Source: Patescibacteria group bacterium (lineage in GTDB: Bacteria > Patescibacteriota > Minisyncoccia > 2-02-FULL-40-12 > GWA2-44-9). Taken from it: a stretch of 44,993 nucleotides of DNA. The stretch lies in NCBI GenBank assembly GCA_038064515.1, contig JBBTSY010000005.1, forward strand, positions 3,100 to 48,092, in the 5' to 3' direction. Each line of letters opens with the position of its first letter. The stretch's first letter is position 1. The notes under the pieces are model-generated. The model had not been told where the DNA came from, ran no database searches, and was given only the letters and a program-made list of their open reading frames with translations. This document shows, piece after piece, positions 8,025 through 44,195 of this stretch. The position numbers and the translations under genes are program-made.

Positions 8025-8522
8025 TTATATTGCTTTACGGCTGAATAGACGCTTGCGCTCTCCTTTTTCTTCTTTTCCTAATTCACGCTCAACCCCCGGT
8101 TTCTTGGCCTCTAGGGCTCTCTGCTCTTTATCTTTCTTTTCTTTTTCTTCCTTGGCTTTCTGTTCGGCTTTATCCCGCTTTAAACCGACTACGCGCTCGT
8201 CTAATACCAGGGTGATACGACTCGTCTTTTTTTGAATTTCAGTCGCGCGACCCTGCGCTCGGGGTAGATATCGCTTAAGCTTAACACCTTCATTAATAAT
8301 GAAATCTTTAATATATAAATTTTCAGCAACCATGCTGTAGGTATTTTCCGCGCTTGCAATGGCTGAACGGATTAATTTTGAGAGCGCTTCGGTGGGACGG
8401 AGGACAATGTGGTCAAGTTGATTAAGTGCAGCAAGTGCGTCTTTCTTTTTTAGCAAATTCACAACCGACCTCACTTTTCGTGGAGCAAGTCGGACGTTAT
8501 TAAGTTGTGCTCGGACTTCCAT
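8025..8522 (-). CDS. rplV: 50S ribosomal protein L22 with a Lys/Glu-rich C-terminal extension
   Basis: L22-like core and synteny. Confidence 0.93.
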   Translation of the reverse strand: MEVRAQLNNVRLAPRKVRSVVNLLKKKDALAALNQLDHIVLRPTEALSKLIRSAIASAENTYSMVAENLYIKDFIINEGVKLKRYLPRAQGRATEIQKKTSRITLVLDERVVGLKRDKAEQKAKEEKEKKDKEQRALEAKKPGVERELGKEEKGERKRLFSRKAI

Positions 8523-8584
8523 GATAATATTTTGTAATCCTACGTCGCCCTTGCGGACTCTTCAGGATAAGTATTTACTAATAC

Positions 8585-8962
8585 TCATTTTTTAGCTTCA
8601 GTTGCCACGGGAGCTGTCTCGGCCTTGGCGGCTTTCGCGGCATCCAATTCTTTCTGCCGCTGAGCAGCTTCTAGTTCCTTCTGCATGCGACCACCGTGAC
8701 GGGCAAACTTTCTCGTGTGCGAAAATTCGCCCAGTTTATGGCCAACCATATCTTCAGTCACAAAAACCTGGATATGGATCTTGCCATTATGAACGCCGAA
8801 AGTGTACCCTATCATCTCCGGCACAATCGTGCAATTACGCGCCCATGTCTTAATAACGGTTTTGCCTGCCTCGCTAGCAGGCAGGTTGCCCGCTTTTAGC
8901 TTGCCAACTTTTTGAAGCAGTTTTTCGTTGACGTATGGACCTTTTTTAAGACTTCGTGACAT
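8585..8962 (-). CDS. rpsS: 30S ribosomal protein S19 with an internal 7-aa palindrome-encoded insert and a C-terminal extension
   Basis: [11 protein letters not shown]-terminus and GHKLGEF motif. About 6 more residues before IKTW than in E. coli or B. subtilis S19, as I recall them. Confidence 0.95.
8864..8885. repeat. CCTGCCT..AGGCAGG palindrome copy inside rpsS, in frame
   Basis: The sequence gcctgcctcgctagcaggcagg is read on the minus strand as CTG CCT GCT AGC GAG GCA GGC, giving LPASEAG. Confidence 0.75.
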
Positions 8963-8980
8963 ATGATATATTTTTGATAC

Positions 8981-9805
8981 TTATTTAACTCGGCGCCGGA
9001 TAATAAACTTCGATGACTTTTTCTTCTTATTGCGCGTTTTGTGGCCGCCGGTAATCTTACCATGGCGAGTCTTTGGACGACGAGTACCGCGACCTTGACG
9101 GCCTTCACCTCCACCATAAGGATGGTCAACCGGATTCATGGCAGTACCGCGAACTTTCGGGCGGCGGCCGAGCCATCGAGATCGTCCTGCCTTGCCCAGC
9201 GAAATCAAAGCATGTTCAGCATTAGAGACCTGCCCAATCGATGCAAGGCATTCGCCGGAAAGCATTCGAGTTTCAGATGATGGCATTACAAGCTGTACCT
9301 GGCCGGCTTCACTTGCCAATACGGTAGCGCCACTGCCTGCTGAACGAACGATCTTGCCGCCCTGGCCCGGAAACAATTCTACATTATGAATGAGAGTACC
9401 TTGAGGAATATTCTTCAAACGCATGCGGTTGCCAGGCCGAATCGGTCCTTTCTCGAAGGTCATAACCGTATCACCCACTTTAAGTTCCTGCGGAGCAAGA
9501 ATGTAGCGACGATCGCCATCAACGAAATTAATGCGCGCAATGCGGGCCGTACGGTTTGGATCGTATTCGAGAGTAGCTACCTTACCCGGGATATCCATCT
9601 TAAGCTGTTTGAAATCCACAATACGATAGAGACGTTTTACGCCATTGCCTCGGTGCGAGCTGGTAATGCGCCCCTGGTTGTTGCGGCCGACTGATTTATG
9701 AAAACCCTTAATGAGCGGCTTTAAGGAACCACTTTTAGCAAGTTGAGAGAAATCGTATCCTTTAGTATGTCGCCGTGACGGCGTTGTGGGTCGATACTGT
9801 TTCAT
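8981..9805 (-). CDS. rplB: 50S ribosomal protein L2
   Basis: L2-like sequence (GRNNQGRITSSHRGNG, MNPVDHPYGGGEG) and synteny. Confidence 0.97.
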   Translation of the reverse strand: MKQYRPTTPSRRHTKGYDFSQLAKSGSLKPLIKGFHKSVGRNNQGRITSSHRGNGVKRLYRIVDFKQLKMDIPGKVATLEYDPNRTARIARINFVDGDRRYILAPQELKVGDTVMTFEKGPIRPGNRMRLKNIPQGTLIHNVELFPGQGGKIVRSAGSGATVLASEAGQVQLVMPSSETRMLSGECLASIGQVSNAEHALISLGKAGRSRWLGRRPKVRGTAMNPVDHPYGGGEGRQGRGTRRPKTRHGKITGGHKTRNKKKKSSKFIIRRRVK

Positions 9806-9814
9806 GCGTTATAA

Positions 9815-10237
9815 TTATGGTTTTGCCTGTTCAATAATACTGCCTTTTTCAAGCGTTACGATTGCTTTACGAAATCCAGATTTGGTGCCGGCAAACTTAC
9901 CGACGTTTCGTGATTTTTCGGGCATGTTCAATACTTGAACATTTTTGATTTTGACTTTATAGAGCGCGCTAATATGCTTTTTGATCGATTGCTTGTCGGC
10001 ATCGCTTGCTACCCTGAACACGTACTGATTCATCCCCATGAGCCGGGAGGCTTTTTCGCTTGCATAGAAACTCTTGATCACCTCGTGAGCGCCTTGGGAA
10101 ACGGCAATCGGGACACCCGCCGACTTCTGTGCGACAACTTCCTCTTGACCCTCACTTTTAATGGGTTTCCCCTCGCCTTCGGCTTGGGATTTGGACTTTA
10201 CTTCCGTATCTTTTTTTCTAAAAATATTAAATGCCAT
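9815..10237 (-). CDS. rplW: 50S ribosomal protein L23 with an N-terminal extension
   Basis: L23 core in the C-terminal half, and synteny. Confidence 0.9.
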   Translation of the reverse strand: MAFNIFRKKDTEVKSKSQAEGEGKPIKSEGQEEVVAQKSAGVPIAVSQGAHEVIKSFYASEKASRLMGMNQYVFRVASDADKQSIKKHISALYKVKIKNVQVLNMPEKSRNVGKFAGTKSGFRKAIVTLEKGSIIEQAKP

Positions 10238-13775: not shown

Positions 13776-14087
13776 CTACGGGGCCTGCTTCTCGTCCTGC
13801 TCAATCTGGTCTTTCAGTGCCTGTATTTCCCGATTTAAGCGTTCCAGCGCTTCTACTTCCTGGGCGCTTAAAGCTGCTCGCACCGGCGCCTCTTCTGAAG
13901 CCTGCGGAACGGGGAAGTTCAGAGCTTCGGCATCGTTAGCCTTCTTTACTTTGACTTCCTGTTCCTTGGCTTGCGTCAGATTGCGGTATACCTGGTAATC
14001 CAGGATCACATACGATGGCTCCCCTTCATCCAAGATCAGAACTGATGTCGAGTTCTTAAGCAGGTCTTTTAATTCTCGAATATCCAC
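13776..14087 (-). CDS. Phd/YefM-like antitoxin-fold N-terminal domain fused to an acidic coiled-coil tail. GTG start.
   Basis: The N-terminus (STSVLILDEGEPSYVILDYQVYRNL) resembles the Phd/YefM pattern. No adjacent toxin gene was recognised. Confidence 0.5.
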   Translation of the reverse strand: MDIRELKDLLKNSTSVLILDEGEPSYVILDYQVYRNLTQAKEQEVKVKKANDAEALNFPVPQASEEAPVRAALSAQEVEALERLNREIQALKDQIEQDEKQAP

Positions 14088-14236
14088 TTCTTACACTCAC
14101 TGACGAGATATGGCTCGCGTTCCGCTTCACAATGTGCTGCGGAGAAGCTAAGTGCAACAGGTCAGGTTTAATCGGTATACAAATCAATTCCTCGCCATTC
14201 ACTCGGAACAACTCGTCTGTGAGTGTGAGGATCCAT
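14088..14236 (-). ncRNA. Copy A of a roughly 130-150-nt structured repeat element (family 2)
   Basis: A 14-bp closing stem joins 14094-14107 and 14212-14225. An inner stem gttccg/cggaac joins 14119-14124 and 14204-14209. It is homologous to 26612-26763, with compensatory changes between the copies. Confidence 0.55.
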
Positions 14237-14260
14237 CCATCAGTTCTACCGTACCGATAT

Positions 14261-14366: not shown

Positions 14367-15188
14367 TCAGCGCAAGAATATTTGACCGGCTTCGTTCCAG
14401 TCAGCCGCCTCTTTGACGGAGCTGGCATTTAAGGACCATTTGCCGGCCCCAGCGACCCACATCGCGATAACAACCCGGAGGTTATTGTCAACATCACGGG
14501 TATAGAACATGTTGGAAAGTCCCGACCCCCTCTCTATCAAGAGGATTCCGGCATTGCCGTGGAGTTGCCTGGAGAGCAACTCCCACAAGTGAACCAGCGA
14601 AATCTCAGCGCGGTTGCCCCGCATATCGAAAGTGTGAGCCTGCAAAGGGCCCCTGGAGAGCTTGTAGGCCTTCAGTGTTTGAGCTGGGACATTCTCCTCG
14701 GCCTTAGTTAGAAACCACTCCTTGAATCTATCAGACATGATTAAGTGATCCTTATTGGCACCGAATGTCTCCTCTGCTGAGAACTTCTCGACTGCCTGGA
14801 CAGATACACTGCCCATTAGCTCAAGATCTACGGGTTCGATATATGCTCTTTCCCTATGAAAGCTCTGATGTTTTTCATCTCCTGTCATCATTTTCTCGGC
14901 TTTCTGTAACTCTTCTGGCGTAGATTGGTCTTTTCCCTTAGTCTCTTGAGAAACATCGTCAATACTGGTCCAATATCCATCGATGTCATCTTGGGGTTCA
15001 TCCACGGCTCCAGGATCATGTTTTTGAGCTTCTTCTCTGGTAGCATACTCACCGATAACTACAGGGGTTTCTGGTCCATTTTTCCAGCGAACGTGCTTTA
15101 TGACTCTAAATCTTGGTTGTTCGACTTCTCCCGCCGATTTTACTTTTTCCTCTTTTTCTATTGGTCTTTTATATTTTTCTTCGGACAT
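14367..15188 (-). CDS. Hypothetical protein, 273 aa. N-terminal module shared with ORF 15278..16438. Unique C-terminal domain.
   Basis: 55 consecutive residues (KHVRWKNGPETPVV...SQETKGK) are identical to the neighbouring ORF. The C-terminal domain was not recognised. Confidence 0.6.
   Translation of the reverse strand: MSEEKYKRPIEKEEKVKSAGEVEQPRFRVIKHVRWKNGPETPVVIGEYATREEAQKHDPGAVDEPQDDIDGYWTSIDDVSQETKGKDQSTPEELQKAEKMMTGDEKHQSFHRERAYIEPVDLELMGSVSVQAVEKFSAEETFGANKDHLIMSDRFKEWFLTKAEENVPAQTLKAYKLSRGPLQAHTFDMRGNRAEISLVHLWELLSRQLHGNAGILLIERGSGLSNMFYTRDVDNNLRVVIAMWVAGAGKWSLNASSVKEAADWNEAGQIFLR
14931..15100. repeat. 170-bp perfect direct repeat, copy 1 (partner at 16184-16353)
   Basis: Compared base by base. 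It encodes the shared N-terminal module of the two paralogs. Confidence 0.9.
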
Positions 15189-15277: not shown

Positions 15278-16438
15278 TCACCGAATTATACCTTTTTTTA
15301 CAATTAACTCCACGACATCAAAAACTTGATCTGGCGATAAGCGAGAGCGAGAACCGTCAGCATTTCTAGGAGCACCACCAATAGTAGAGCCTCCTCCCCA
15401 TCCAGGTTCTAATTTATTTAACTCGTGCAAAATCGTGCCTTCTTTCGATACGGGGCCAACCGGAAAATTACTGACTAGCTCTGATTTCTTTGCGATAGTA
15501 TATGCGTAACTACCGTCTGCTTGCTGTTGCATAGCTACAGCCCTCGTATGACCTGCCTTATATATGAGATCGAAGACAAAATCATTTGATTGGGCCATAA
15601 TCCAATTAGTACCTTCTCTTACTACCTCGAAATTGCGAGCAATTTCTTGTTTCGTGTATTTAAAATTGCCGGCCACAAGATCGTCAAGATTCTTTAAGCA
15701 TTGCTCAAGGAGTGTGTTCAGATCGTCTTGACTGTATGTCCGATTTCTCCTTGCATCGCTTTCCGGTTTCATAACTCCTTTATAAAATGCGTCCGCTAGT
15801 TCTGCGTCGAGAGGCTCATAGGCTGGTCCATGAGCGTCGATTCCGCCAACCGACTCAACAAGCATTCTTATCTTCAGACTATGAGCTTCACTTGGGTGAC
15901 GTAGTAACCAGACTGATAAAACGGTATCCCCATCAATATCATTTACATAGACTTTGCTTTTTTCCGGTTCGAACCCTAGAAGCAAAGCATCGAGTACTTG
16001 TTGACATGTAGCACGAGTTATTTGACGATTAACTTTATCATGATGATCAAAGGAGAATCTGTTACGCCCCACATCAAACTCAGGCCCCTGAACATATCCG
16101 TCAAGAGCAACACTGTTCTCGGGCATGTTATCAAACTGTTCTGTTTTACCACGTGCAATGACTAGATCCACCAGACTCTCTCCTTTTCCCTTAGTCTCTT
16201 GAGAAACATCGTCAATACTGGTCCAATATCCATCGATGTCATCTTGGGGTTCATCCACGGCTCCAGGATCATGTTTTTGAGCTTCTTCTCTGGTAGCATA
16301 CTCACCGATAACTACAGGGGTTTCTGGTCCATTTTTCCAGCGAACGTGCTTTACTACCCTGAATTTAGGATGCTCAGCTTCTCTCGTACTAGTTTCCTCT
16401 TTTTTTTCAACGATTGATTCGGGTTTCTCGCTATTCAT
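15278..16438 (-). CDS. Hypothetical protein, 386 aa. Shared N-terminal module plus a C-terminal domain with DHH/DHHA1-like motifs.
   Basis: The motifs FSFDHHD, DIDGDT and GWGGGSTIGGAP recall DHH-family phosphoesterases. Motifs I and II are not evident. Confidence 0.6.
   Translation of the reverse strand: MNSEKPESIVEKKEETSTREAEHPKFRVVKHVRWKNGPETPVVIGEYATREEAQKHDPGAVDEPQDDIDGYWTSIDDVSQETKGKGESLVDLVIARGKTEQFDNMPENSVALDGYVQGPEFDVGRNRFSFDHHDKVNRQITRATCQQVLDALLLGFEPEKSKVYVNDIDGDTVLSVWLLRHPSEAHSLKIRMLVESVGGIDAHGPAYEPLDAELADAFYKGVMKPESDARRNRTYSQDDLNTLLEQCLKNLDDLVAGNFKYTKQEIARNFEVVREGTNWIMAQSNDFVFDLIYKAGHTRAVAMQQQADGSYAYTIAKKSELVSNFPVGPVSKEGTILHELNKLEPGWGGGSTIGGAPRNADGSRSRLSPDQVFDVVELIVKKGIIR
16184..16353. 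repeat. 170-bp perfect direct repeat, copy 2
   Basis: Identical to 14931-15100. Confidence 0.9.
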
Positions 16439-16565: not shown

Positions 16566-16738
16566 TGAATCACTCCGGAGTATTTGATGAAATGAGCGAA
16601 AGTGAATAGCCGTAGTGGTGTTTCGAAGAAGGCCGCCCTAGTGGGCGGCCTTCTAGATGGAACGGAGGCGTGAGTGAGCTGAACGAATTTCTAAAATACG
16701 GAGATCGTGATGAAAAAACTATCGGCGAGCGGCTATTT
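16566..16738 (-). ncRNA. Copy E1 of a roughly 175-185-nt structured repeat element (family 3) abutting the fusA stop codon
   Basis: Homologous to 31469-31653. Conserved blocks are interleaved with a fully compensated variable hairpin (16627-16654). A long-range pairing joins 16605-16612 and 16730-16737. Confidence 0.55.
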
Positions 16739-18838
16739 CTTTCCTTCCATAATCTGCGTCGCGATATTGCCTGGAACAGGTTCATAGCGTTCAAACTCCA
16801 TCGTAAACGTACCCCGGCCCTCCGAGAAGGAGCGGATAGTGGTGGCGTATCCGAACATTTCTGAAAGCGGAACGCGCGAGTTAATAATCTTCAAGCCAAG
16901 TATACCTCGATCATCGACGCTCATAATCTGGCCACGGCGCGAGGAAAGATCGCCAGTAGTGGAACCAAGGAAATTGTCTGGAACGATAACTTCGACTTTC
17001 ATGATCGGTTCAAGGATAACCGGCTTGGCGCGCTTGACCGCTTCTTGAAATGCTATTGACCCAGCCACCTTGAAGGCGATTTCGGAAGAATCGACATCGT
17101 GATAAGAGCCATCGTAGACGGTGACTTTAATATCAACAACCGGGAATCCGGCGATAACGCCTTTATCAATGGCTTCACGGACACCTTTTTCAATGGCGGG
17201 GATGAATTCTTGAGGAATTGCGCCACCTTTGACGGCGTTCACAAACTCGAATCCTTCGCCGCGTTCTTTAGGCTCTACTCGCAACCAGCAATGGCCATAC
17301 TGACCGCGACCACCAGACTGCTTGATATATTTGCCCTCTGCCTGGGCTTTTGCGGAAATAGCTTCTTTATAGGCAACCTGCGGGCGACCAACATTTGCCT
17401 CGACGCCGAATTCACGTTTCATGCGCTCAACGAGAATTTCTAAGTGCAATTCACCCATGCCGGCGATGATCATTTCACTGGTCTCCTCATCACTCCGAAT
17501 ACGGAATGTAGGATCTTCATCGGAGAGTTTTTTCAAAGCCATACCCATCTTTTCCTGGTCAGCTTTAGTCTTTGGTTCAATGCGTAAGGAAATAACCGGT
17601 TCTGGAAAGTCGATACCTTCAAGAAGGATCGGATTATCGGGATCGCACAATGTATCCCCCGTTCGGGTATCTTTCAATCCGACTGTGGCGGCGATATTAC
17701 CCGCATAAATTTCTTTTACTTCTTCCCGATCATTGGCATGCATCCGGACAATGCGACTAATACGTTCCTGCTGGCCGCTACGCGTATTGAGGACATAGGA
17801 ACCGGCGGTAATCTTCCCGGAGTACACGCGGAAAAACGTCAAAGCGCCGACATACGGATCAGTCGCGGTTTTAAACGCCAGGGCGGTAAATGGAGCCGAA
17901 TCTTCGGAGGCAATCATTTTCTCTTCACCCGTTTTTTGAACCGTAGCTTTCGCGGGAGGAATATCCAATGGAGACGGGAGGTAGTAGGCCACCGCATCAA
18001 GCACGAGTTGAACGCCTTTATTTTTTAATGCCGAACCGCAAAGCACAGGGAAAATTTTATTTTCAAGCGTTGCCGCGCGAACAATACTTCGCAGACGAGA
18101 AACATCAATTTCTTTTCCCTCAAGGTATTCGGCCATAGCTTGATCGTCTTGCTCGACAATCTTCTCAATCATAGCCGCACGCTCTTTTTTCGCGGCTTCA
18201 ATGAGATGATCAGGAATTTCACCTTTGATGACCTTTTCGCCCTTATCTCCTAAAAACGTAACATATTCCATCGTCATTAGGTCAACGATGCCTTTGAATT
18301 GATCTTCATGACCATCCGGAATTTGAAGTTTCACGGCAAACGGAGAAAGACGTTCAAGGATCGACTGGTAGGAACGCTCAAACGAGGCACCCAAGCGGTC
18401 GAGTTTATTAATAAAGCAGATGCGCGGAACTTTGTAATCGTCCGCATAGCGCCAATTAGTTTCCGATTGAGGTTCCACGCCGGCAACGCCGTCAAACACT
18501 ACCACAGCACCGTCGAGTACGCGCAAAGATCGTTTTACTTCAATAGTAAAGTCGATGTGTCCCGGAGTATCAATGATGTTAAGCTTGACTTTGTCCGCAT
18601 CCTTATCTTTAGCATCGGTCGGGATCCAGTAGGCAGTCGTGGCGGCGGCAGTAATGGTGATACCGCGCTCTCGCTCCTGTTCCATCCAGTCCATAATCGT
18701 ATCGCCTTCGTGAACTTCACCGATTTTGTGAGAAATACCGGTATAAAAAAGAATACGCTCCGATGTCGTCGTTTTGCCTGCATCGATGTGCGCGATAACA
18801 CCGATATTGCGAATTTTTTCAATTGGATAGTCTGCCAT
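16733..18838 (-). CDS. fusA: Elongation factor G
   Basis: 701 aa with AHIDAGKTT and DTPGH motifs and a typical EF-G sequence. Confidence 0.98.
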
Positions 18839-20986: not shown

Positions 20987-21030
20987 ATTAGACATTGCGC
21001 AATGAAGCAGTATATAATTTCGATACGCAA

Positions 21031-21101
21031 CGGGCTGTGGTATAACGGTATTACGCATGGCTGGGGGTCATGTAACCCGGGTCCAACTCCCGGCAGCCCG
21101 A
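21031..21101 (+). tRNA. tRNA-Pro (anticodon GGG)
   Basis: Cloverleaf folded by hand. The acceptor stem is CGGGCUG/CAGCCCG with the C1-G72 pair and A73 typical of bacterial tRNA-Pro. The anticodon loop is CUGGGGG with G37. The T-loop UCCAACU has C at position 55, which is atypical. No CCA is encoded. Confidence 0.65.
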
Positions 21102-21104
21102 CAT

Positions 21105-21315
21105 CAGAAATAAAAATAGAGCCGTTCTGCGGCTCTATTTTTATTTCTGATGTCGCAATTACTGAACGCCGCTCGAACCTTTTTTGAACAAAACTCTTGA
21201 TTGCCGCGCTTCGCGCGGCAGGAACGAAATCTAACGCTCGGGCGGGCAAAAAGAAAGGGGGTTGGGGGGAATGAATTTTTGCCCGCCCTCGCTTTCCGCC
21301 GCCGCCGAATTTCGT
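21105..21315. repeat. Left copy of a perfect 211-bp inverted repeat
   Basis: It is the reverse complement of 23334-23544, checked base by base. It contains three hairpins: a 20-25-bp AU-rich stem, tgccgcgc-TTCG-gcgcggca, and gggcgggcaaaaa..tttttgcccgccc with a C/G-rich loop. Confidence 0.9.
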
Positions 21316-21473
21316 ATTTCGCTTTGCGAAATGCGCCGCAGAAAAGAGAGGAGTTGTGTTTGCCCCGCCCTCCCGTGCGCACACAACAAAGTTTTTACTC
21401 CCATTTATCATATATTGGATTATAATACACTCTTGTTAAAGAGTGCAATAGACGCTATATTACAACCAAGTTT

Positions 21474-22568
21474 ATGAACGGAAAAATTACATTTAGCAAT
21501 TCCAGTCTTGAGTCTATTAACGGGATAGATTATTTACGCTTGAGAGAGGAAAGTCATTACAAAACCGGCCTTGCCGCCGGAAATCTTTTTGTTAAATCAA
21601 ACTATAAAATAATCAGGCTTTTAAAAAATCCTTTCGTAAATATAATTTTGTGGTTTCTTCGCCTTAAATACGAAAAGAAAATTCCAGAAGTCCGCATTCC
21701 AAAAGAATATCAAGATGAACTTAGAGGTTGTGCGGAGGCGACAAAAATTCCATATAAATATCTACTCTTAATAAATTTAATCTACGAAATTAGGGGGTGT
21801 TCCGGTTTTGTTTTTTTTAATCCTGATGGATCCTTACTTCTTGGACACAATACTGATGTCTCAAAAATGTTGGCAAAGCTTGCTCTTCGTTACATGAAGC
21901 CGCTCGTAACGGATGTATCAATCCCTGGAAAGAATAATTTTGTTCATGTTGCTATGCCTCTCATTTTGGGGGCGATAAATGGTTTTAATGATAAAGGCAT
22001 AGCAGTATCTTCACATGATGCTGGAGGCATCTACGCTAAAGTTGTGAAAAATAACACCAGCACTTCGTGTCTTGTAAAAATGGTTCTAGAAAATGCCGAG
22101 AGTTTAGCTGAAGTTCAAAAGACAGCACAGGAAAATCTTGCTTATTATCCTGGAATTATGATTGTTGCGAGTGCGCGTGAGCGTAAAGCTTCTATACTTG
22201 AAGCTTATCCGTCAGATTTTGATTTTGTGTCTTTCACAAACACTTCTTATATTTTTTCTGCAAATCACTATCAGAGCGACAAAATGAGAAAATATCATAG
22301 AGAAGTTAAAAAGGGTAGTTTGGATAGATTAACTTGCCTACAAGGAAGTTTATCTGGAAAAAATATTTTGTCGGTTCAAGAAGCTATCCAAATTTTGAAA
22401 GACCACAGAAATGGCATACACCGCGACACAACCGGATATTCAATAGCGAATATAGGGACATTTCAAAGTTTTATTTTTGATGTAACGAGGAGTAAAGTTT
22501 ATATTTCAAATGGTAAAAAATTACCTGTTCCTTTGCACGGTAATTTTGTCAAAATCAGTGCTTTATGA
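21474..22568 (+). CDS. Ntn-hydrolase, peptidase C45 / acyltransferase-like protein
   Basis: GCSGFVFFNPDGSLLLGHNTD resembles the catalytic-Cys block of the C45 / choloylglycine-hydrolase-type family. Confidence 0.6.
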   Translation: MNGKITFSNSSLESINGIDYLRLREESHYKTGLAAGNLFVKSNYKIIRLLKNPFVNIILWFLRLKYEKKIPEVRIPKEYQDELRGCAEATKIPYKYLLLINLIYEIRGCSGFVFFNPDGSLLLGHNTDVSKMLAKLALRYMKPLVTDVSIPGKNNFVHVAMPLILGAINGFNDKGIAVSSHDAGGIYAKVVKNNTSTSCLVKMVLENAESLAEVQKTAQENLAYYPGIMIVASARERKASILEAYPSDFDFVSFTNTSYIFSANHYQSDKMRKYHREVKKGSLDRLTCLQGSLSGKNILSVQEAIQILKDHRNGIHRDTTGYSIANIGTFQSFIFDVTRSKVYISNGKKLPVPLHGNFVKISAL

Positions 22569-22771
22569 AAAATATTTCTACAAAAATCGGCAAAAATTTA
22601 AAACGAATCAGAACTGAAAAGAAAATGTCGCAGGGCGACATTTCTAGGAAGTTAGGCATGGACAGAGGGTATATAAGTGGTGTTGAAAATGGAAAAAGAA
22701 ACCCGACAGTTGCCACAGTTGAAAAACTGGCAAACGCCTTAGGTATTTCCGTTGACGAATTATTGAAATGA
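22565..22771 (+). CDS. XRE-family helix-turn-helix transcriptional regulator
   Basis: 68 aa with the classical HTH_3 pattern (LKRIRTEKKMSQGDISRKLGMDRGYISGVENGKRNPTVATVEKLANALG). Confidence 0.85.
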   Translation: MKNISTKIGKNLKRIRTEKKMSQGDISRKLGMDRGYISGVENGKRNPTVATVEKLANALGISVDELLK

Positions 22772-23280
22772 AAAACTACAGAAAAATTCTCGGATTACTG
22801 TCTGGAATTATGGCAATTGCGATGCTCATAATTCCGATTTTCTTTTACAGAAATTTGAGTGAAGTAGCCAAAAGCACCGGGTACGTTGGGTATTTTTTCG
22901 CAAATTATTTCGGCTTTGGAATCTATACACTTCCTTTCCTCGTAAAAATATTAAATCCATTTTTACTAATTATAATCGGTGCTTTTGGCTTAACTATTGA
23001 TGAATTTTTTGCATGGTATGCGGGCAATGTTTCAGAAGAACTCGACCGTTCTAAAAAATTTCACAACAAGATACAATCTTATGTTGAACGATATGGACTT
23101 CTTGCCATATTCATATTTGGTTTATTACCTCTGCCCGGAATAGTTTATGCCATATCAGGCTTTGCCGCAGGGCATTTCAAAATTCCTTTTTACAAATTTT
23201 TTCTTACAAACTTTTCCGCAAAGCTAATCCGAACAACAATAATTGTAATTGGACTTTTGGTATTTTTTGAAAAAATTTGA
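22768..23280 (+). CDS. DedA/YqaA-like (VTT-domain-like) membrane protein
   Basis: 170 aa with 4-5 TM segments. The GLLPLPG...SGFAAG pattern resembles YqaA/DedA. Confidence 0.55.
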   Translation: MKNYRKILGLLSGIMAIAMLIIPIFFYRNLSEVAKSTGYVGYFFANYFGFGIYTLPFLVKILNPFLLIIIGAFGLTIDEFFAWYAGNVSEELDRSKKFHNKIQSYVERYGLLAIFIFGLLPLPGIVYAISGFAAGHFKIPFYKFFLTNFSAKLIRTTIIVIGLLVFFEKI

Positions 23281-23333
23281 GAATAAGGCATAAATTGGGT
23301 AGAATAACATTGCGGTGTGCTAACTTCGTTGGC

Positions 23334-23544
23334 ACGAAATTCGGCGGCGGCGGAAAGCGAGGGCGGGCAAAAATTCATTCCCCCCAACCCCCTTTCTTTT
23401 TGCCCGCCCGAGCGTTAGATTTCGTTCCTGCCGCGCGAAGCGCGGCAATCAAGAGTTTTGTTCAAAAAAGGTTCGAGCGGCGTTCAGTAATTGCGACATC
23501 AGAAATAAAAATAGAGCCGCAGAACGGCTCTATTTTTATTTCTG
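23334..23544. repeat. Right copy of the perfect 211-bp inverted repeat
   Basis: Reverse complement of 21105-21315. Confidence 0.9.
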
Positions 23545-24158
23545 TTTATGCAGGCAAGGAGCAGTTGAGGAGCAAAGGCGACGAAATGCCAAAGTCAGTA
23601 GACGTGGTGCCCGACAGTAGCAAACCAAAAATCCGTCCTGCGACGGGTTTTTGGTTATCCTCACAAGCTCCTCCGTACATATTGAGGTGGCCTAGCTTTT
23701 TACTCCACGTGTGTGAGTCCGCAAGGCGATTTTTCGGAAGTCCTTTTTAGGGAACCTCACCAAAATGACCTAATATAGGGCTACAAGAGTATATTGTCAT
23801 AAATGATCCAGGTCCTACTAAATACGGGAGGGCTCATTCATAGTATACACCCTGTTCTTAAGCATCCTGCGGACAAGCTGTGTTTCTTTTGTGAATAAAC
23901 TGTGCATGAGTGCGCCTTCGCTCGCGAAGATAGCCGCAAAAAACGGCCATGACTGACTGAAGCACCACAAAACGGCATGGGAGCTATTGACAAATTTCAA
24001 ACAAACGAAAAGGCCCCCTCATCAGCAAAAGACTTAAGCTATTTAAATGTGTGGGTCTCCGCAGAAGTGCCCCACGGGGCAAAACGATATAGGAATCCCG
24101 AGTTAAATAATTTGTTCTAAAGCTTAGGCCAACGAGGAGGCCCACTGCCAGTATACTC
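23545..24158. other. ORF-poor 614-nt region of unknown function
   Basis: Only short ORFs that look spurious. It holds a 15-bp-stem hairpin at 23623-23656 and a small CUUCG-CUCG-CGAAG hairpin. Possible long-range pairings are CTCCTC (23669-23674) with GAGGAG (24134-24139), and GGCCTAGC (23689-23696) with GCTTAGGCC (24122-24130). Confidence 0.3.
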
Positions 24159-24686
24159 CTATTTCTTCCATTCCGAAACAGAACCCCTGTTAAGCATATT
24201 ATCTGCCATTTCTAACTCTTCATAGATACCATCGATAAGGTCTACGGCTTTTGCTTCTTCCAAATTTACCCACCGAAATTCAGTCATGCTTTCATCAAGT
24301 ACAACTTCTCCGCTAGCATAATCGGCAAGACATGAAATAACGAGTGATGGATACTCATCGTGCGCCTGCCTGCCGGCCCGCTTCGCCGGAGCTTTAGCGA
24401 GGCGAGCAGGCAGGTCCGCAAGCGAAGTTACATACCGGATATTCTTAATTTCAATCCCCGCTTCTTCTTCTACTTCGCGTCGAAGTGTACGTTCCAGCAC
24501 ATTATACCAATAATCAGGAGTGTCTTTGGGAAGATGTACATAATCTTCCGTGTCTAGCTTTCCACCCGGCACGGTCCAGCGTGACGGAAATTTTTTCTCC
24601 CGTGCCGCGCGTTGCAACACTAAATATTTCCCGTCTTTCACGACAATGGCCGTAATGACAACTTTAAATAGTTTCTTAGGATCCAT
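24159..24686 (-). CDS. Nudix hydrolase with a palindrome-derived in-frame insert
   Basis: Nudix box GGKLDTEDY..x..REVEEEAGIEI. A low-complexity LPARLAKAPAKRAGRQA segment is encoded by repeat 24365-24414. Confidence 0.85.
   Translation of the reverse strand: MDPKKLFKVVITAIVVKDGKYLVLQRAAREKKFPSRWTVPGGKLDTEDYVHLPKDTPDYWYNVLERTLRREVEEEAGIEIKNIRYVTSLADLPARLAKAPAKRAGRQAHDEYPSLVISCLADYASGEVVLDESMTEFRWVNLEEAKAVDLIDGIYEELEMADNMLNRGSVSEWKK
24365..24414. repeat. Expanded palindrome copy (arms CCTGCCTGCC and GCAGGCAGG separated by about 31 nt) inside the Nudix gene
   Basis: Read directly. It is in frame, since the ORF continues through it. Confidence 0.7.
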
Positions 24687-25747
24687 TAGAGATTTAGAAC
24701 TTTAACCAACTGTTTAATTAGGGCAACTACGACCGGTGGCGCCAGGAGGCTATAAGACAGTTCGCCCTCGTCATCTTTAATAATCCATGGAGATTCTTTA
24801 ATGATGACCTCTTTTTTCTTTGCATCCCAGGCGTACGAAGAAACTGGAGTTAATTCATAGTCATCTACAAATTTCTTTGCATCTTTTACTGAAATTGAAT
24901 TTCGCAAGTAAATTTTTGGTACTCCTTGAAGTTGAAGCAACTGTGACATAACTTTTTTATCTACTTCGAGCCGATCCCGGATTGCTTCAATACCAAATTC
25001 ATCCCCTTCCTTCCCCCTCATCCTTGCTCCATCGTTATCACAAATCAAATAAAATTCTTTTATCTTTTCATCATAACCGACACGCTGTGTGCGCAATAAC
25101 TTTAAACTGCGGGATGTTTGGCATTTTGGACAGATAACTCGGGTTTTAAATCGTTCTGCTAAAATCGTTTCGGGGACGTGCAGAAAAATAAAAAAGTCAG
25201 GATCATCTCGATAGCCCATCAAGGCTCGAAAATACAAAGATGTTTGAACCTGATCAAGGTTGCGAGGAAAACCATCAATAAATACCGGCTTTCGATTTAA
25301 GCGGTCAACTTCGCGTTCAACAAGAGCAAGAATTACTTCGTTTGGTAATAAGGTTTTGGTATCTCGACCGAGGATAATATCGATTGCTTGTTCTGCTGAT
25401 ATATATCCGCGATAACGCTCTTTTAAAAATGTTATTAGTTCTTTTTTGTCTTTTGCATGAGCAAGAGATTTGTGAACACTGCGAACGATATCACCAACCG
25501 ATAAATGGGCCACGAGATCAGCATCAAGAGCTTCGAGAAAAAGTTTTGCATAGGTGCCTTTCCCTGAGTTTTTTGGACCCAAGAAAAACCCCATGAAAGT
25601 ATTTTTTTTAAGATACTTTCTTAATTTCTTTATTTCTGAACCGGCTTTAAAATCAAAATATCTCCTTCGTTGAGCACGGTTTTCAAGATTAAACTTCTGC
25701 TCACCCATCTTAGTTTTAAACGGCGAAAAATTTGCAACACTTTTCAT
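24686..25747 (-). CDS. Adenylate-kinase-like nucleotide kinase, long form
   Basis: P-loop GPKNSGKGTYA and a LID-like CPKCQ...CDNDG motif. 353 aa with a C-terminal extension. It is not located after secY. Confidence 0.65.
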   Translation of the reverse strand: MKSVANFSPFKTKMGEQKFNLENRAQRRRYFDFKAGSEIKKLRKYLKKNTFMGFFLGPKNSGKGTYAKLFLEALDADLVAHLSVGDIVRSVHKSLAHAKDKKELITFLKERYRGYISAEQAIDIILGRDTKTLLPNEVILALVEREVDRLNRKPVFIDGFPRNLDQVQTSLYFRALMGYRDDPDFFIFLHVPETILAERFKTRVICPKCQTSRSLKLLRTQRVGYDEKIKEFYLICDNDGARMRGKEGDEFGIEAIRDRLEVDKKVMSQLLQLQGVPKIYLRNSISVKDAKKFVDDYELTPVSSYAWDAKKKEVIIKESPWIIKDDEGELSYSLLAPPVVVALIKQLVKVLNL

Positions 25748-25749
25748 GA

Positions 25750-26616
25750 TTATTGCTTATTAAGATAATACGAAGTCCCATCACTGATAAGACGAATCAT
25801 TCCATCAGTATCAGTACGATACAGTGTTGCACCGAAATTTTCAAGGCGGGAAAGAATCAGTTCCGCAGGATGCTTGTACCGATTTTTTACTCCTACCTGA
25901 ATTATTGCCGCTTGCGGGGTAACAGCATCGAGGAACGGCAACGCCGTCGAAGTTTTTGATCCATGGTGGCCCACTTTCAATACATCCGCATCGATATCGA
26001 TATTATTATTGACCAAGATGCGTTCCACGGCCGCCTCCATATCACCCGCCAACAGAACTTTTACGTGCTTATATTGAAGCATCGCTACCACGTTGTCATC
26101 GTGAGGCTTATCAGTCGCAGTGCCGAGCACTGATTTCAGAGGATGGATAATCGTAAAAGTCATTTCGGGTCCTAAGTTGATCTGTTTTCCCGCCACAGTA
26201 TCAATTTCGATTGTATGCTCTTGAGCAACCGCTTCCTGCCACGATCGGAATTCTAATGAATCATATTGCTCTCCTGCCTGAATGACATAGCCAACGTCAT
26301 AATGCTTTAATACATCAATTAATCCGGCGATATGATCGCTATGAGGATGGCTAACCACGACCGCATCGATAGACCGATCGTAAAATGGCATCACCCGCGC
26401 CAGCTCCGCAATCACGGCACTGTCCGGTCCGCCATCGACAAGCACCTGGTTGCCATTCGGAGCTTCTATAAAGATGGCGTCTCCCTGGCCGACATTCAAA
26501 AAATATATTTTTAAAAGTCCATCCTTCTGCCCTGCGGCTTGTGAACTTGAAAACGCCAGCACGATGAGTACCAGGGCGATGATTCCCGCAATTATTTTAT
26601 CTCTATTCGTATCCAT
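25750..26616 (-). CDS. Membrane-anchored metallo-beta-lactamase-fold protein (ComEC C-terminal domain homolog)
   Basis: HPHSDHIAG motif. I chose the start at MDTNRDKII (ATG at 26616), followed by a TM helix. The upstream part of the tracked ORF is the family-2 repeat element. Confidence 0.8.
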   Translation of the reverse strand: MDTNRDKIIAGIIALVLIVLAFSSSQAAGQKDGLLKIYFLNVGQGDAIFIEAPNGNQVLVDGGPDSAVIAELARVMPFYDRSIDAVVVSHPHSDHIAGLIDVLKHYDVGYVIQAGEQYDSLEFRSWQEAVAQEHTIEIDTVAGKQINLGPEMTFTIIHPLKSVLGTATDKPHDDNVVAMLQYKHVKVLLAGDMEAAVERILVNNNIDIDADVLKVGHHGSKTSTALPFLDAVTPQAAIIQVGVKNRYKHPAELILSRLENFGATLYRTDTDGMIRLISDGTSYYLNKQ

Positions 26617-26763
26617 CCTTACACTCATTGACGAGATATGGCTCGCGTTCCGTCTCACATAGTGGTGCGGAAAAGCTTTGCCATACAGATCAGCATTATG
26701 ATGATTCAAACAAATCCTCGCCATTCACTCGGAACAACTCATCAATGAGTGTCAGGATCCATG
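26612..26763 (-). ncRNA. Copy B of the family-2 structured repeat element, wedged between the two comEC-derived ORFs
   Basis: A closing stem joins 26622-26635 and 26738-26751. An inner stem joins 26647-26652 and 26730-26735. The comEC stop codon (26752-26754) abuts the stem. Confidence 0.55.
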
Positions 26764-31468: not shown

Positions 31469-31653
31469 TGAATCACTTCGCGAGGTATTTGATGAAATAA
31501 GCGAAGTCGAATAGCCGAAGTGGTGCTTCGACGTAAAGAAGCTTCCTTATGGAAGCTTCTTTACTAGGTGGAACGGAGGTGTAGATGAGACGAGCGAACC
31601 TTTCCAAATACCGAGGCAGTTGTGATGAAAAAGATGGTAGCGAGCGGCTATTT
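31469..31653 (-). ncRNA. Copy E2 of the family-3 structured repeat element abutting the ftsZ stop codon
   Basis: See copy E1. The variable hairpin is 31533-31564. The long-range pairing joins 31510-31517 and 31645-31652. Confidence 0.55.
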
Positions 31654-32799
31654 GTTCATTTTGCGCCGTATAAACGCCGGAATATCAAAATCTTTTTCAT
31701 CTTCGATCGAGGGATCGATGATTTCTTTCACCTCTTTTACGGGTTCACGCTCCATAATATCTTGTTTCTTGATAGCGTTATCAAAGAGGCTTAGGCCGCC
31801 ACCATTATATTTTGCAGACGGATTTGAAGGTGATACGGGATAGGTATTCGTAAAACCAGTCGCTACGACAGTGATCTTGATCTCCCCTTTCTTGAGCTTG
31901 TCATCAACGACAGCGCCGAAGATGACTTTTGCATCGGGATCAATGTGTTCAGTGATAATCCGTGCCGCTTCGCTGATTTCTGCCATTGCCATGTCGGTAC
32001 CGCCGGACACGTTAAAAAGAACGCCGCGAGCGCCGTCGATGGAGAGTTCCAGGAGCGGAGAGTTGATCGCCATACGAGCCGCCTCTACGGCTCGATCTTC
32101 GCCGGAAGCTCTCCCGATGCCCATGAGCGCCGATCCAGAGTTAGACATAACCGCCTTCACGTCGGCAAAGTCGGTATTAACAATACCAGGGATAGTGATG
32201 AGATCAGAAATACCTTGGACGCCCTGTCGAAGGACGTCATCAACTACTGCGAATGATTCGAGTAACGGAGTCTTGCGATCAATGATGGAAAGGAGTCGGT
32301 CATTAGGGATCGTGATAAGCGCGTCAACCTTATCGCGCAGAAGCTGAAGACCTTCTTCGGCCACGCGAGAGCGTTGAGCTCCCTCAAAGCTAAAGGGCCT
32401 GGTTACGACTGCCACGGTCAGTGCGCCGGATTCTCGAGCCATGTCAGCGATAACCGGTGCGGCGCCTGTTCCGGTACCTCCACCCAACCCTGTCGCAATA
32501 AAAACCATATCGGCTCCCTTAAGAGCGGTAAGAATGTCTTCTCGGGTCTGTTCGGCGGCTTCGCGACCGATGCTCGGATTCATGCCAGCGCCAAGGCCTC
32601 GCGTGAGACTTTTGCCAATGTGAATCTTTACCGGAGCGTTTGAATTGTGGAGTGACTGGGCATCGGTATTTACGGCAATAAATTCAACGCCGTGAATCCG
32701 TGCTTCGATCATTCGCTCTAGGGCATTACCGCCCGAGCCGCCAAGACCTAACACTTTAATGCGGGCAAACGTTTCAAATTGAGGTTTAACTTGGGGCAT
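31648..32799 (-). CDS. ftsZ: Cell division protein FtsZ
   Basis: [11 protein letters not shown] signature. 383 aa. Confidence 0.98.
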
Positions 32800-41388: not shown

Positions 41389-41479
41389 TGGTGGACTATT
41401 CTTAAAGTAGTTCGGACGCATTTCGCCGCCTGCGGCGGCGGGGGTTTGGCCAAAAATTCCGAACCGAAATCCTGAATTT
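41389..41479. repeat. attL-like site: 8-bp core TGGTGGAC plus 83-bp arm X
   Basis: Identical in inverted orientation to 42480-42570. The core equals the tRNA-Ala 3' end. Confidence 0.8.
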
Positions 41480-41512
41480 TGACAATTTCAAGTTTTTCTT
41501 TGGCGGCAAATT

Positions 41513-42379
41513 CTAGTTACAGAAATTTTCATTAAATGAAAATTTCTCGCCAAGTGAACGAAGGAGTTCGGGATAATCCATTTTACCAGAAGAGAAAGGC
41601 CCCTTACTTAGAACAAAGACCCTGTCTCCCTGAGTACAGCCGAGCAATAGGAATAATTCTGTATCCGGCGCGGGAGGTGTTGTCCTGTTCGATAGCAGTA
41701 ATGCCTGAACTTTTTGAGAAGATATGGTGACTACCTCTTTATTCTTAAAATTCCCAAAGAAACCACTTTGTGCCCACTGCAAATATTCTCTCGAGGCATT
41801 CCCGGCATCAAATTGATTTTTTGCAATTGTGAGCAATTTATCATCCATGGATTTCATAAATTGCTCTAATGATTGACCGTGTTGTTTGGGCAACACAACA
41901 GCATCAATTTCGCGAAGTAACTCAAGAACTGTGGGTGGCTCACCGAGGTAACCGAATTGATTTAATTTGTCGCTCGATGTCTTCGTAATTTCATTCCAGC
42001 GTTCAGGAGAAACAAGAGCATAATGAGCTTGTACACCAAATTGATCGTCAAGAAACCACGCTAGACCACCTTGGCCATAGAACAATTTGGAGGATTCCTT
42101 CTTAGTAACATCAGTGGGCAAATCAGCAATCGAAAATACTCGCCATGCTGGCCCTAGGTCAAGAGCTAGTTCCCCTAAAGAAAAATCTACGCGAACAGAC
42201 GAATTACCCACTTGATAGGAAAGTTGGTTGGGAAAAATTTTATTGGATTCTTTTTGTTTTACCCACCAATAAATTCCACCGCCAACAATTATGGCGGTCA
42301 AAATAACAGTAACAACTGTAACAAAAGGCAAAGAATTATTTTTAGGAGTAGGGCCAATCTGATTTATTTCTTGTTCCAT
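41513..42379 (-). CDS. Hypothetical membrane-anchored protein, 288 aa (element cargo)
   Basis: N-terminal TM helix. No motif recognised. Confidence 0.6.
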   Translation of the reverse strand: MEQEINQIGPTPKNNSLPFVTVVTVILTAIIVGGGIYWWVKQKESNKIFPNQLSYQVGNSSVRVDFSLGELALDLGPAWRVFSIADLPTDVTKKESSKLFYGQGGLAWFLDDQFGVQAHYALVSPERWNEITKTSSDKLNQFGYLGEPPTVLELLREIDAVVLPKQHGQSLEQFMKSMDDKLLTIAKNQFDAGNASREYLQWAQSGFFGNFKNKEVVTISSQKVQALLLSNRTTPPAPDTELFLLLGCTQGDRVFVLSKGPFSSGKMDYPELLRSLGEKFSFNENFCN

Positions 42380-42479: not shown

Positions 42480-42663
42480 AAATTCAGGATTTCGGTTCGG
42501 AATTTTTGGCCAAACCCCCGCCGCCGCAGGCGGCGAAATGCGTCCGAACTACTTTAAGAATAGTCCACCAGACAGGAAATTGCAAGCAAGGGGCATTCGC
42601 CTCGTTTTGCTCGGCGACCAAATCGTAAGGTTTTCTGGGCGAAAAAATCAGTTGGCGATTCTG
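42480..42663. repeat. Inverted attP-like junction: arm X', core GTCCACCA (42563-42570), arm Y'
   Basis: 42480-42570 is the reverse complement of 41389-41479. 42563-42663 is the reverse complement of 44073-44173. Confidence 0.85.
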
Positions 42664-42698: not shown

Positions 42699-44195
42699 AT
42701 GAAATATATACTTTACGCTCGCAAGAGTACCGAGGACGAGGATGGGCAGATTTTGAGCATTGAGGCCCAAATCTTTGAATTAAAAGAATTTGCCGCCAAA
42801 GAAAAACTTGAAATTGTCGCTTCCTTTCAGGAAGCAAAAACTGCCAAAGAACCTGGGCGAATGAAATTCGCAGAAATGTTGTCATTGATTGAGAAAGGAA
42901 AGGCGGATGGCATACTTTCATGGAATCCTGATCGTCTTGCTCGCAATTCAGTAGACGGCGGGAAAATAATTCACATGATAGATCGCGGCTTGATTAAAGC
43001 GTTGAAGTTCCCAACGTTCTGGTTTGAACCGACACCACAGGGACTTTTCATGCTTCAAATTGCTTTTGGACAAAGTAAGTATTATGTAGATGCTCTGCGT
43101 GAAAATGTTACTCGTGGTATGAGGCAAAAAGTGAGAAACGGCGTTTGGCCAAGCAAAGCGCCACTCGGCTATCTCAATAATCCCAAAACGCGAGGAATTG
43201 ATGTTGATACCGAGAAAGCTTCTGAAGTTAAGAAAGTTTTTGATCTCTACGCCACTGGAAACTACAATCTCCGAGAATTAGCCGAGTGGTGTAAGCGAGT
43301 AAATCTCAAAAGCAATTTGGGCAATGACATTTCAATTGGAAAAGTCCATGAGCTTTTACAAAATGTCTTCTACCTTGGCCTTATGAAATACAAGGGCGAA
43401 CTCTACGAAGCCACTCACAAGCCAATCATTTCAAAGAAACTTTTTGATAAGGTGCAAGTAATTATGCGAGAAAAAGGTAAGCCGCAAAAAGTGAAGAAAC
43501 ATAATTTTACTTTTCTTGGACTTATGAAATGCCCTTGTTCGGCAGCAATAACCGCCGAAAAGAAGATCAAGCCAAGTGGCAGAGAATATGTTTATTACCG
43601 ATGCACAAAAAAGAAAGGCCCATGCCAGGAAAAGTATTTTTTGCGGCAGGAAGAATTGTATCAGCAAGTTAGATCATTTCTTCAAAAAGTTTCTTTGCCG
43701 AGCCAAGACACCGAAAAAGTTTTGCGCGAGCTGGAAAAAGAAGAATCGCAAGCGAAAGAACAAGCTAAAATCACTGTTCAAAATCTCAAAACCAAGTTAG
43801 CCGAAGTCGGGCTAAAATTGGAAAAACTTCTCGATGTGTATTTGGAAGAAACCATAACCGCCGAGGAATACGCCTCACGCAAAGAAAAACTGGTCAAGCA
43901 AAAAGTCGGTTTACAAGAACAAATCCGAGATTTTGAACAGAAAGGGTTGTCATGGCTCGAACCGGCTCGTGAGTTCGTTTTATCGTTAAATCAAGCCGCT
44001 AAAATGCTTGAGTCCGAAAACAAAACCGAGATGACAACATTTCTTAAAAATATCGGCTCGGACTGCATTTTACAGAATCGCCAACTGATTTTTTCGCCCA
44101 GAAAACCTTACGATTTGGTCGCCGAGCAAAACGAGGCGAATGCCCCTTGCTTGCAATTTCCTGTCTGGTGGACCCTAGCGGATTCGAACCGCTGA
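42699..44195 (+). CDS. Large serine recombinase
   Basis: Resolvase-type N-terminus (YARKSTEDEDGQILSIEAQ), a recombinase domain, a Cys-rich zinc ribbon (CPCS...YYRCTKKKGPC) and a coiled coil. The last 41 codons run through arm Y, the core, and the antisense strand of tRNA-Ala. Confidence 0.88.
   Translation: MKYILYARKSTEDEDGQILSIEAQIFELKEFAAKEKLEIVASFQEAKTAKEPGRMKFAEMLSLIEKGKADGILSWNPDRLARNSVDGGKIIHMIDRGLIKALKFPTFWFEPTPQGLFMLQIAFGQSKYYVDALRENVTRGMRQKVRNGVWPSKAPLGYLNNPKTRGIDVDTEKASEVKKVFDLYATGNYNLRELAEWCKRVNLKSNLGNDISIGKVHELLQNVFYLGLMKYKGELYEATHKPIISKKLFDKVQVIMREKGKPQKVKKHNFTFLGLMKCPCSAAITAEKKIKPSGREYVYYRCTKKKGPCQEKYFLRQEELYQQVRSFLQKVSLPSQDTEKVLRELEKEESQAKEQAKITVQNLKTKLAEVGLKLEKLLDVYLEETITAEEYASRKEKLVKQKVGLQEQIRDFEQKGLSWLEPAREFVLSLNQAAKMLESENKTEMTTFLKNIGSDCILQNRQLIFSPRKPYDLVAEQNEANAPCLQFPVWWTLADSNR
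44073..44173. repeat. attR-like site: 93-bp arm Y plus core TGGTGGAC
   Basis: Identical in inverted orientation to 42563-42663. The core is the 3' end of tRNA-Ala. Confidence 0.85.

Follow-up and report, generated by a model that had tools for sequence, protein, structure and literature searches.

Gene islets that lie next to tRNA genes are already known, as is recombination between long inverted repeats. The plastid inverted repeat and the yeast 2-micron plasmid both have segments that are flipped by homologous recombination between long inverted repeats. In tRNA-seeded islands, integrase-type insertion takes place serially at a tRNA gene (10.1101/2020.12.28.424599). Here we describe a 2,440-bp islet at positions 21105-23544 of a 44,993-nt stretch of DNA (the window) from a groundwater Patescibacteria genome that is Parcubacteria/'Taylorbacteria'-like (assembly GCA_038064515.1, contig JBBTSY010000005.1). 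The islet carries three genes beside tRNA-Pro(GGG) and is bounded by two arms, 21105-21315 and 23334-23544, which are perfect inverted copies of a structured non-coding module. To our knowledge, no one has described a case in which a conserved structured module forms a perfect inverted boundary of 211 bp and is common to cargos of opposite base composition in sister Patescibacteria genomes.

Like tRNA-seeded islands with cargo elements and degenerate, integrase-less remnants (e.g. the Prochlorococcus tycheposon islands, or cis-mobilisable elements flanked by attachment (att) sites), the locus occupies a tRNA 3' end, has variable content and cargo of foreign composition, retains no integrase in the islet and, in a sister genome, shows stacked partial tRNAs. 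Such islands have direct partial-tRNA repeats, however, whereas the islet has a perfect 211-bp inverted repeat and no significant tRNA-derived sequence inside. Non-autonomous elements with terminal inverted repeats (TIRs) and composite transposons resemble the islet in having limits at inverted-repeat ends, passenger genes and no transposase of their own; the islet differs from both in that it lacks a target-site duplication, its arms are no insertion-sequence copies, and relatives have a single module copy at one end of the cargo. With the flipping segments of plastids and the 2-micron plasmid it shares long identical inverted repeats on either side of unique sequence, and here too the identity of the arms would be maintained by copy correction. 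Unlike these segments and unlike invertons, however, the islet has no visible orientation-dependent function and no adjacent dedicated recombinase, and the short repeats of invertons, with their promoter or coding switch across the repeat, are also not seen. Integron cassettes likewise consist of variable cargo followed by a structured, hairpin-forming non-coding unit, but the islet has no integron integrase, no paired R''/R' cores, a promoter-like site of its own, three genes and a module of about 211 nt that ends in a terminator-like hairpin; the window is without a tyrosine recombinase, and inspection of the module by eye found one GTTAGAT with no RYYYAAC partner. Finally, fold-back priming from short palindromes yields inverted duplications in yeast (PMC10622511). 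The near-perfect 45-nt palindrome at the outer end of the arm and the perfect identity of the arms recall such palindrome-seeded duplications, but a fold-back palindrome is centred on its seed whereas the islet copies face apart around unique cargo, so that at least one further step would be needed.

A repeat search shows that the two arms, each 211 nt long and separated by 2018 nt, are 100% reverse-complementary, exactly as an earlier note on this DNA had claimed. Because 45 kb offers about 1e9 position pairs, to be set against 4^30 for a perfect 30-nt inverted repeat, not even a repeat of that length is expected in the window, and a chance origin of the arms is excluded. The tRNA-Pro(GGG) gene lies on the plus strand at 21031-21102 according to ARAGORN and at 21031-21101 according to Rfam (53.5 bits), and the promoter scan places a promoter-like TAGACA-18-TATAAT at 20989-21018 in front of it. 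The left repeat therefore starts 2-3 nt after the tRNA, depending on which end is taken, and not 4 nt after it as had been noted. G+C content is 51% in the arms, 36% in the cargo segment and 43-46% in the host flanks, and the three open reading frames (ORFs) of the islet are on the plus strand whereas the other genes of the window are almost all on the minus strand.

Three independent assemblies are consistent with this structure. A contig from another strain, sampled in Hainich well H51 (L017), matches window positions 21291-23384 with 7 mismatches in 2094 nt and holds both inner arm/cargo junctions on a single contig, each with unique sequence on one side. A contig from Hainich well H41 (L002) matches positions 24880-23490, and so holds the right outer junction, and ends exactly 55 nt into the right arm, which is the expected behaviour of a k=55 assembly at a true repeat edge. 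The third, a Logan contig, covers the unique middle of the locus only, and the left outer junction was sought in other assemblies through the L28 gene, for which the exact L28 protein is not on record. An assembly artefact appears unlikely given that, in contigs from two other aquifer samples, the two inner junctions are present and the sequence breaks off at the right outer one. That one arm might be produced by a hairpin mis-join or by mixed strains is suggested by the presence of perfect long inverted repeats at two places of one metagenomic contig, and by the fact that short-read assemblies from other samples stop at the arms. Nevertheless, a hairpin mis-join gives a fold-back of the same sequence rather than unique cargo between the arms and, taken together with the junctions in the two Hainich contigs, this makes an artefactual arm extremely improbable. 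The earlier note had also held that its proposal would fall if one repeat copy lacked support, or if relatives carried the same cassette without repeats at this position; as it turns out, the junctions are backed by other assemblies and no relative has a repeat-less cassette here.

Syntenic loci were fetched using the adenylate-kinase-like gene to the right of the cassette (24686-25747). Distant Parcubacteria have the gene order EF-G (elongation factor G), S7, S12, M50 protease, L28 and tRNA-Pro, followed by about 280 nt and a convergent kinase-like gene, and the tRNA-Pro/kinase interval is empty in five loci (L014, L015 and L023-L025). A closer relative, L020 (85% amino acid identity), has a NUDIX gene and about 420 nt with no cassette at the site, and L033 has a methyltransferase-like gene in the interval. 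In the sister genome L018/L019, which is about 92% identical in nucleotide sequence and has flanks 90-95% identical to those of the window, homology to the window ends exactly at the tRNA end (21102) and restarts at 23622. The hot-spot cargo of L018 consists of pyrF and a pyrE-like phosphoribosyltransferase gene (8386-9963) and has a G+C content of 59%, as against about 45% for the genome; this lineage is usually thought to be without nucleotide biosynthesis, and the two genes look like acquired pyrimidine-synthesis genes. The tRNA-Pro genes of the window and of L018 (10120-10404 region) are just 71% identical, as against 90% for the L28 gene and 95% for the non-coding flank, and downstream of the L018 tRNA lie two partial copies of a tRNA-Pro 3' half, one of the window type and one of the L020 type. 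Stacked tRNA halves together with a divergent tRNA-Pro are the pattern expected from repeated integrase-type insertions, and the tRNA-Pro allele itself has seemingly been replaced by incoming elements. Judged by these alignments, the tRNA-Pro/kinase intergenic region is a genuine insertion hot spot, and the earlier suggestion that the tRNA served as a landing site is upheld by the empty site in L020 and by the different cargo in the sister genome. In its position at a tRNA 3' end and in its presence/absence polymorphism among relatives, the islet is like a tRNA-targeting integrative element or genomic island. In addition, the gene for the ComEC DNA-uptake channel is located 3 kb from the islet.

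The limits of the inserted DNA can be set precisely. Once positions 21105-23544 are deleted in silico, the window again aligns to the empty L020 site and to the native tRNA-proximal sequence of L018; since colinearity with relatives is restored in this way, the repeat-bounded block corresponds to exactly the inserted DNA. These comparisons show the block to be an acquired insertion. The native sequence that follows tRNA-Pro has been pushed away to 23545-23622 (plus strand), where it aligns to L020 and L018 after the deletion, and it contains a CCCGACA motif at 23610-23616. It is followed by a native, terminator-like bidirectional hairpin, T_N, at 23623-23656, which was found by the terminator scan and by alignment with relatives and of which two inverted copies are present around the L018 cargo.

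The arms are more than nameless duplicated DNA: both are copies of one discrete non-coding module, which in relatives is found singly beside other cargo. The right arm, on the plus strand, can be aligned from end to end with L018 8044-8255(-) at 64-67% identity. This value is far under the 90-95% of the flanks, which indicates that the arm came with the cargo and not by descent. The L018 module is present once, directly 3' of pyrE, in the orientation of the window's right arm, and has 51% G+C. Compensatory changes are seen in the stem of its hairpin 3 (GGGCGGCGCGGGAA/TTCCCGCGCCGCCC), the loop being unchanged, a different hairpin stands in place of hairpin 2, and a bidirectional terminator-like palindrome is again found at the end. 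Moreover, this terminal palindrome recurs on the far side of the cargo (94% identity as an inverted copy, 82% as a direct copy), and the L018 cargo is thus also bracketed by inverted hairpins, although not by whole modules. In L016, which has a kinase-like protein of 53% amino acid identity, the 3' part of the module is located at the same relative position and the contig ends inside the module. A covariance model of hairpin 3 also identifies a candidate module in L006, a weak match of 21 bits with an E-value of 0.0011 when three sources are counted and of 0.0053 when all 31 are, which adjoins, divergently, an operon led by a helix-turn-helix (HTH) protein 66% identical to that of the window and which has a promoter-like site upstream. 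Apart from these single-copy homologues, neither the window nor the 345 kb of related loci contain any further arm copy. An exact-pattern scan of JGI metagenomes for the palindrome, an IMG/VR scan for the hairpin-3 stems and a comparison of the module with phage genomes gave no match, and six IMG/VR matches to the 17-mer loop proved to be unrelated on inspection. The alignments with relatives show that the module of about 211 nt is a portable unit which accompanies cargo of very different origin.

Four elements make up each arm: a GC hairpin that covaries and has a C-rich loop, another hairpin, a conserved box and, facing outward, a palindrome resembling a bidirectional terminator. The left arm (21105-21315) is the inverted copy, with its C-rich hairpin loop on the minus strand (covariance model R1, 101.6 bits on that strand), and the right arm (23334-23544) has the module in the orientation also found in relatives. 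Hairpin 3 is located at 21233-21295 on the minus strand of the left arm and at 23354-23416 on the plus strand of the right arm, with the same stem (GGGCGGGCAAAAA/TTTTTGCCCGCCC) and the same conserved loop containing CCCCCCAACCCCC. Hairpin 2 of the right arm is a short GC hairpin at about 23429-23447 (plus strand), and the conserved box, TTCAAAAAAGGTTCGAGC...GCGACAT, is on the same strand of this arm. The outermost 45 nt of each arm are palindromic, forming a stem of 20 bp around a loop of 5 nt, which reads TTCTG on the left and CAGAA on the right, where the palindrome (H') spans 23500-23544 on the plus strand. On the left the structure (H, 21099-21155) has a 26-bp stem that is fully paired in the RNA fold, its first 6 bp being supplied by the tRNA end CGACAT. 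The same CGACAT precedes both palindromes, and positions 21099-21149 and 23494-23544 make up a 51-nt direct repeat except for the flipped loop. The GC core of the palindromes (GAGCCG/CGGCTC) is flanked by an A-tract and a T-tract, a geometry that would fit a bidirectional intrinsic terminator.

Searching Rfam 15 with the 211-nt module gave no family, the three tRNAs of the window being the only matches at the gathering threshold, and a permissive search gave sub-threshold matches to the outer palindrome (SpF41, E 0.21; ylbH, E 0.32) and none to the structured core. The module has no terminal repeats of its own. We also considered that the module might be derived from tRNA-Pro, given that GGTTCGA and CGACA resemble the T-loop and acceptor, and rejected this idea when local alignments to three tRNA-Pro alleles scored no better than shuffles. 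Similarly, we dismissed a possible degenerate remnant of an earlier module copy immediately interior to the left arm (TTTGCCCCGCCCTC), which scored 11 where shuffles averaged 9.5 (sd 1.6).

The explanation that we tentatively prefer, at slightly less than even odds, is that the locus is an integrase-less cargo islet at a tRNA-Pro hot spot, the boundary module of which has been duplicated in inverted orientation or homogenised, and which could be flipped by homologous recombination. The cargo and one copy of the module would have arrived by means of a tRNA-Pro-targeting recombinase acting in trans, or by homologous replacement after DNA uptake. A second, inverted copy of the module would then have been made on the other side, or gene conversion would have homogenised two copies of older date; either event, if recent, would account for the 100% identity of the arms. 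Transcription into or out of the islet would be stopped at both borders, with the left palindrome perhaps serving as the terminator of tRNA-Pro. In addition, arms of 211 bp would let general (RecA-type) homologous recombination flip the 2-kb cargo, which would reverse it with respect to replication and the adjacent genes and leave its expression unaffected. Inversion by this route and homogenisation of the arms are both plausible, and with perfect 211-nt arms the two cargo orientations yield identical junction sequences.

Several points weigh against this explanation. The module family consists of two full sequences, one truncated sequence and the weak 21-bit match, and no relative has the module at both ends, the other end of the L018 cargo having the repeated 34-nt hairpin only. 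The step that created the second arm is seen in no relative, and neither arm is demonstrably native to the site. No reconstructed mechanism explains why the arm starts exactly at the tRNA end, save for the 6-nt CGACAT match. Moreover, the automated terminator scan made no call on the outer palindromes, the stem of which extends through the T-tract. Template switching is seeded by sequences such as the palindromic outer end, but simple fold-back would not give the outward-facing arrangement.

The earlier note had reported that no recombinase or transposase lies within or beside the cassette, and we find none within about 19 kb on either side, the nearest being the large serine recombinase gene at 42699-44195. 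None of the three islet ORFs encodes a recombinase, so that no integrase stands at an end of the element. No significant partial tRNA is seen in or beside the islet, where direct recurrence is confined to CGACAT plus the palindrome. A serine- or tyrosine-recombinase crossover at the arm ends was considered as well and rejected, as the junctions have no common dinucleotide or overlap and the 8-nt core of the serine recombinase locus, TGGTGGAC, is absent from the arms.

The coincidence of the arm ends with the limits of the inserted DNA is also what would be seen for a non-autonomous transposon with 211-bp TIRs, moved as a unit by a transposase encoded elsewhere. This alternative would accommodate the finding of the module with different cargo and probably at different loci (L018, L016, L006), and the genome does have miniature elements bounded by TIRs, including one that the sister genome lacks, implying that transposition activity exists or existed. 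No target-site duplication is found, however: the flanks read ...CCCGACAT / TTTATGCAGG... (...GACAT / TTTATG...), and the junctions share no direct repeat of even 2 nt. Nor is there a transposase in the 45-kb window or an arm copy beyond the single-copy homologues mentioned above, and the one other cargo element at the hot spot has the module at one end only. The arm termini are also unlike the TIRs of the resident miniature element, and we consider a transposon of this kind unlikely. A programmed invertible element, flipped by a site-specific recombinase such as the large serine recombinase 19 kb away and acting as a phase-variation switch, is suggested by the inverted repeats around a 2-kb segment and by the fact that the serine recombinase gene of the window is itself bracketed by perfect 101-nt inverted repeats which include the tRNA-Ala 3' end. 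This possibility seems very improbable to us. There is no invertase next to the segment, the arms are about ten times as long as a typical invertase site, and the TGGTGGAC core does not occur in them. Furthermore, the promoter-like site and all three complete ORFs are inside the segment, and because the predicted promoter (21433-21461) is internal, inversion would alter no promoter or coding link and would leave expression unswitched.

It is also conceivable that the arms are two functional small RNA genes or RNA-level regulatory elements, perhaps linked to the XRE-type regulator, and that their inverted layout is incidental. On both strands the predicted fold of the arm is much more stable than that of shuffled sequence (z -6.6 and -7.8), hairpin 3 covaries around a constant C-rich loop, and the right arm has a promoter-like site directed into it and a terminator-like hairpin at its end. 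The L006 element, which is divergent from an operon with a related HTH gene and has its own promoter-like site, would also fit such a role. Against this, the module matches no Rfam family, the left copy has no promoter-like site upstream, the L018 module has no HTH gene nearby, and the covariation comes from two to three sequences, all of which leads us to regard this reading as quite doubtful. Equally doubtful is a reading in which an undescribed mobile system of Patescibacteria carries cargo and has the module as its recognition end; the two-armed form would be the complete element. In such a system, an unknown recombinase or the uptake of folded single-stranded DNA would install cassettes of any origin beside tRNA-Pro and elsewhere by way of the module, a hairpin-rich boundary element with its C-rich loop hairpin, CGACA box and terminal palindrome; joined element ends would then form a long perfect palindrome.

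Patescibacteria (the Candidate Phyla Radiation) have tiny genomes, and little is known about the routes by which they gain genes. The locus gives a base-pair view of a tRNA-Pro hot spot with different cargo in genomes about 8% apart, and of the same non-coding boundary module standing beside cargos of opposite base composition. If the module is a recombination or insulation device, it would offer a handle for spotting acquired genes and might give a design for portable, self-insulated cassettes. If it is merely a duplicated terminator region, the locus would still illustrate cleanly the origin and persistence of long, perfect inverted repeats in a genome of reduced size.

The cargo segment starts with a unique 5' region (21316-21473, plus strand) that has no significant similarity to the module and contains the promoter-like TTGTTA-17-TATATT at 21433-21461, 12 nt ahead of the first start codon. 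The first gene (21474-22568, plus strand) encodes a 364-aa C45-family autoproteolytic N-terminal nucleophile (Ntn) acyltransferase/hydrolase, which matches PF03417 (AAT; 2.6e-15) and scores 132 bits against the NCBIfam model NF040521 (C45_proenzyme), the cut-off for family membership being 85. The protein is probably functional, as it has kept the Gly108-Cys109 self-cleavage site and other motifs that are invariant in ten C45 homologues. A search of 5.8 billion sequences found just 25 homologues, and wherever the source gives an organism it is Patescibacteria. The second gene (22565-22771, plus strand) encodes a 68-aa XRE-type HTH regulator (HTH_3, 5.8e-19), and the third (22768-23280, plus strand) a 170-aa DedA/VTT-like membrane protein. 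The latter scores 32.4 bits against VTT_dom/PF09335, slightly below the gathering cut-off of 33.9; its homologues (55-96% identity) have precomputed PF09335 assignments, and two of them are labelled DedA/YqaA by JGI. The second and third genes each start in an ATGA overlap with the stop codon of the gene before, which bears out the tight operon seen earlier. A unique 3' spacer (23281-23333, plus strand) follows, and the promoter-like TTGAGA-17-TAGAAT at 23277-23305 is directed into the right arm.

The idea that the three genes form a system did not survive comparison with other genomes, in which they are not conserved together and the C45 and DedA-like genes are found singly in unrelated contexts. 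The C45 gene recurs at 83-86% identity without its HTH and DedA partners, and the DedA-like gene occurs alone at 84-85% identity, e.g. between holB and frr. The loci compared were L009-L011, L012, L008 and L003 for C45 and L035-L037 for the DedA-like gene, and at the DNA level these resemble the window within the ORF only. The two genes behave as single-gene nomads. The contexts of the C45 homologues include a site between nusG and rplK with a PDDEXK_3 gene, one near rpmA, one beside DUF302 and one next to a GIY-YIG gene, and inverted repeats were looked for around the C45 homologues in other genomes without any being found. With PADLOC defence models the sole match was to the generic HTH, and PDB sequence searches with the C45 and DedA-like proteins gave nothing useful.

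Other features of the window deserve mention. The large serine recombinase gene (42699-44195; Resolvase, Recombinase and Zn-ribbon domains) adjoins tRNA-Ala and is bracketed by the perfect 101-nt inverted repeats at 42563-42663 and 44073-44173. A neighbouring 288-aa ORF without a family match lies between perfect 91-nt repeats at 41389-41479 and 42480-42570. The 8-nt tRNA-Ala 3' end, TGGTGGAC, occurs at all three sites, giving an attL / inverted attP-like / attR pattern, and a 34-nt piece of 5' recombinase coding sequence (42785-42818) is found inverted at 41481-41514. The miniature element, of about 150 nt, is present in two copies that are 87% identical (14083-14237 and 26610-26763) and has TIRs of 18-21 nt (ATCCTTACACTCAYTGACGAG). 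The copy at 26610-26763, between the ComEC and metallo-beta-lactamase genes, is a recent insertion as judged by its absence from L018.

Between the native hairpin and the NUDIX gene there are about 500 nt of non-coding sequence (23657-24158) that are 95% identical in L018 and match no Rfam family at threshold. A promoter-like site on the minus strand (23800-23772) lies about 120 nt upstream of a terminator-like hairpin on the same strand (23646-23633), and this pair, 23800-23633, may mark a small RNA. Between tuf and fusA, a 204-nt direct repeat (95% identity; 14930-15133 and 16183-16386) is shared by adjacent ORFs of 273 and 386 aa that have no Pfam match. Finally, positions 16580-16741 and 31485-31656 share repeats of 47 and 35 nt (80-87% identity), which are located at and just upstream of the starts of the EF-G ORF and ftsZ.

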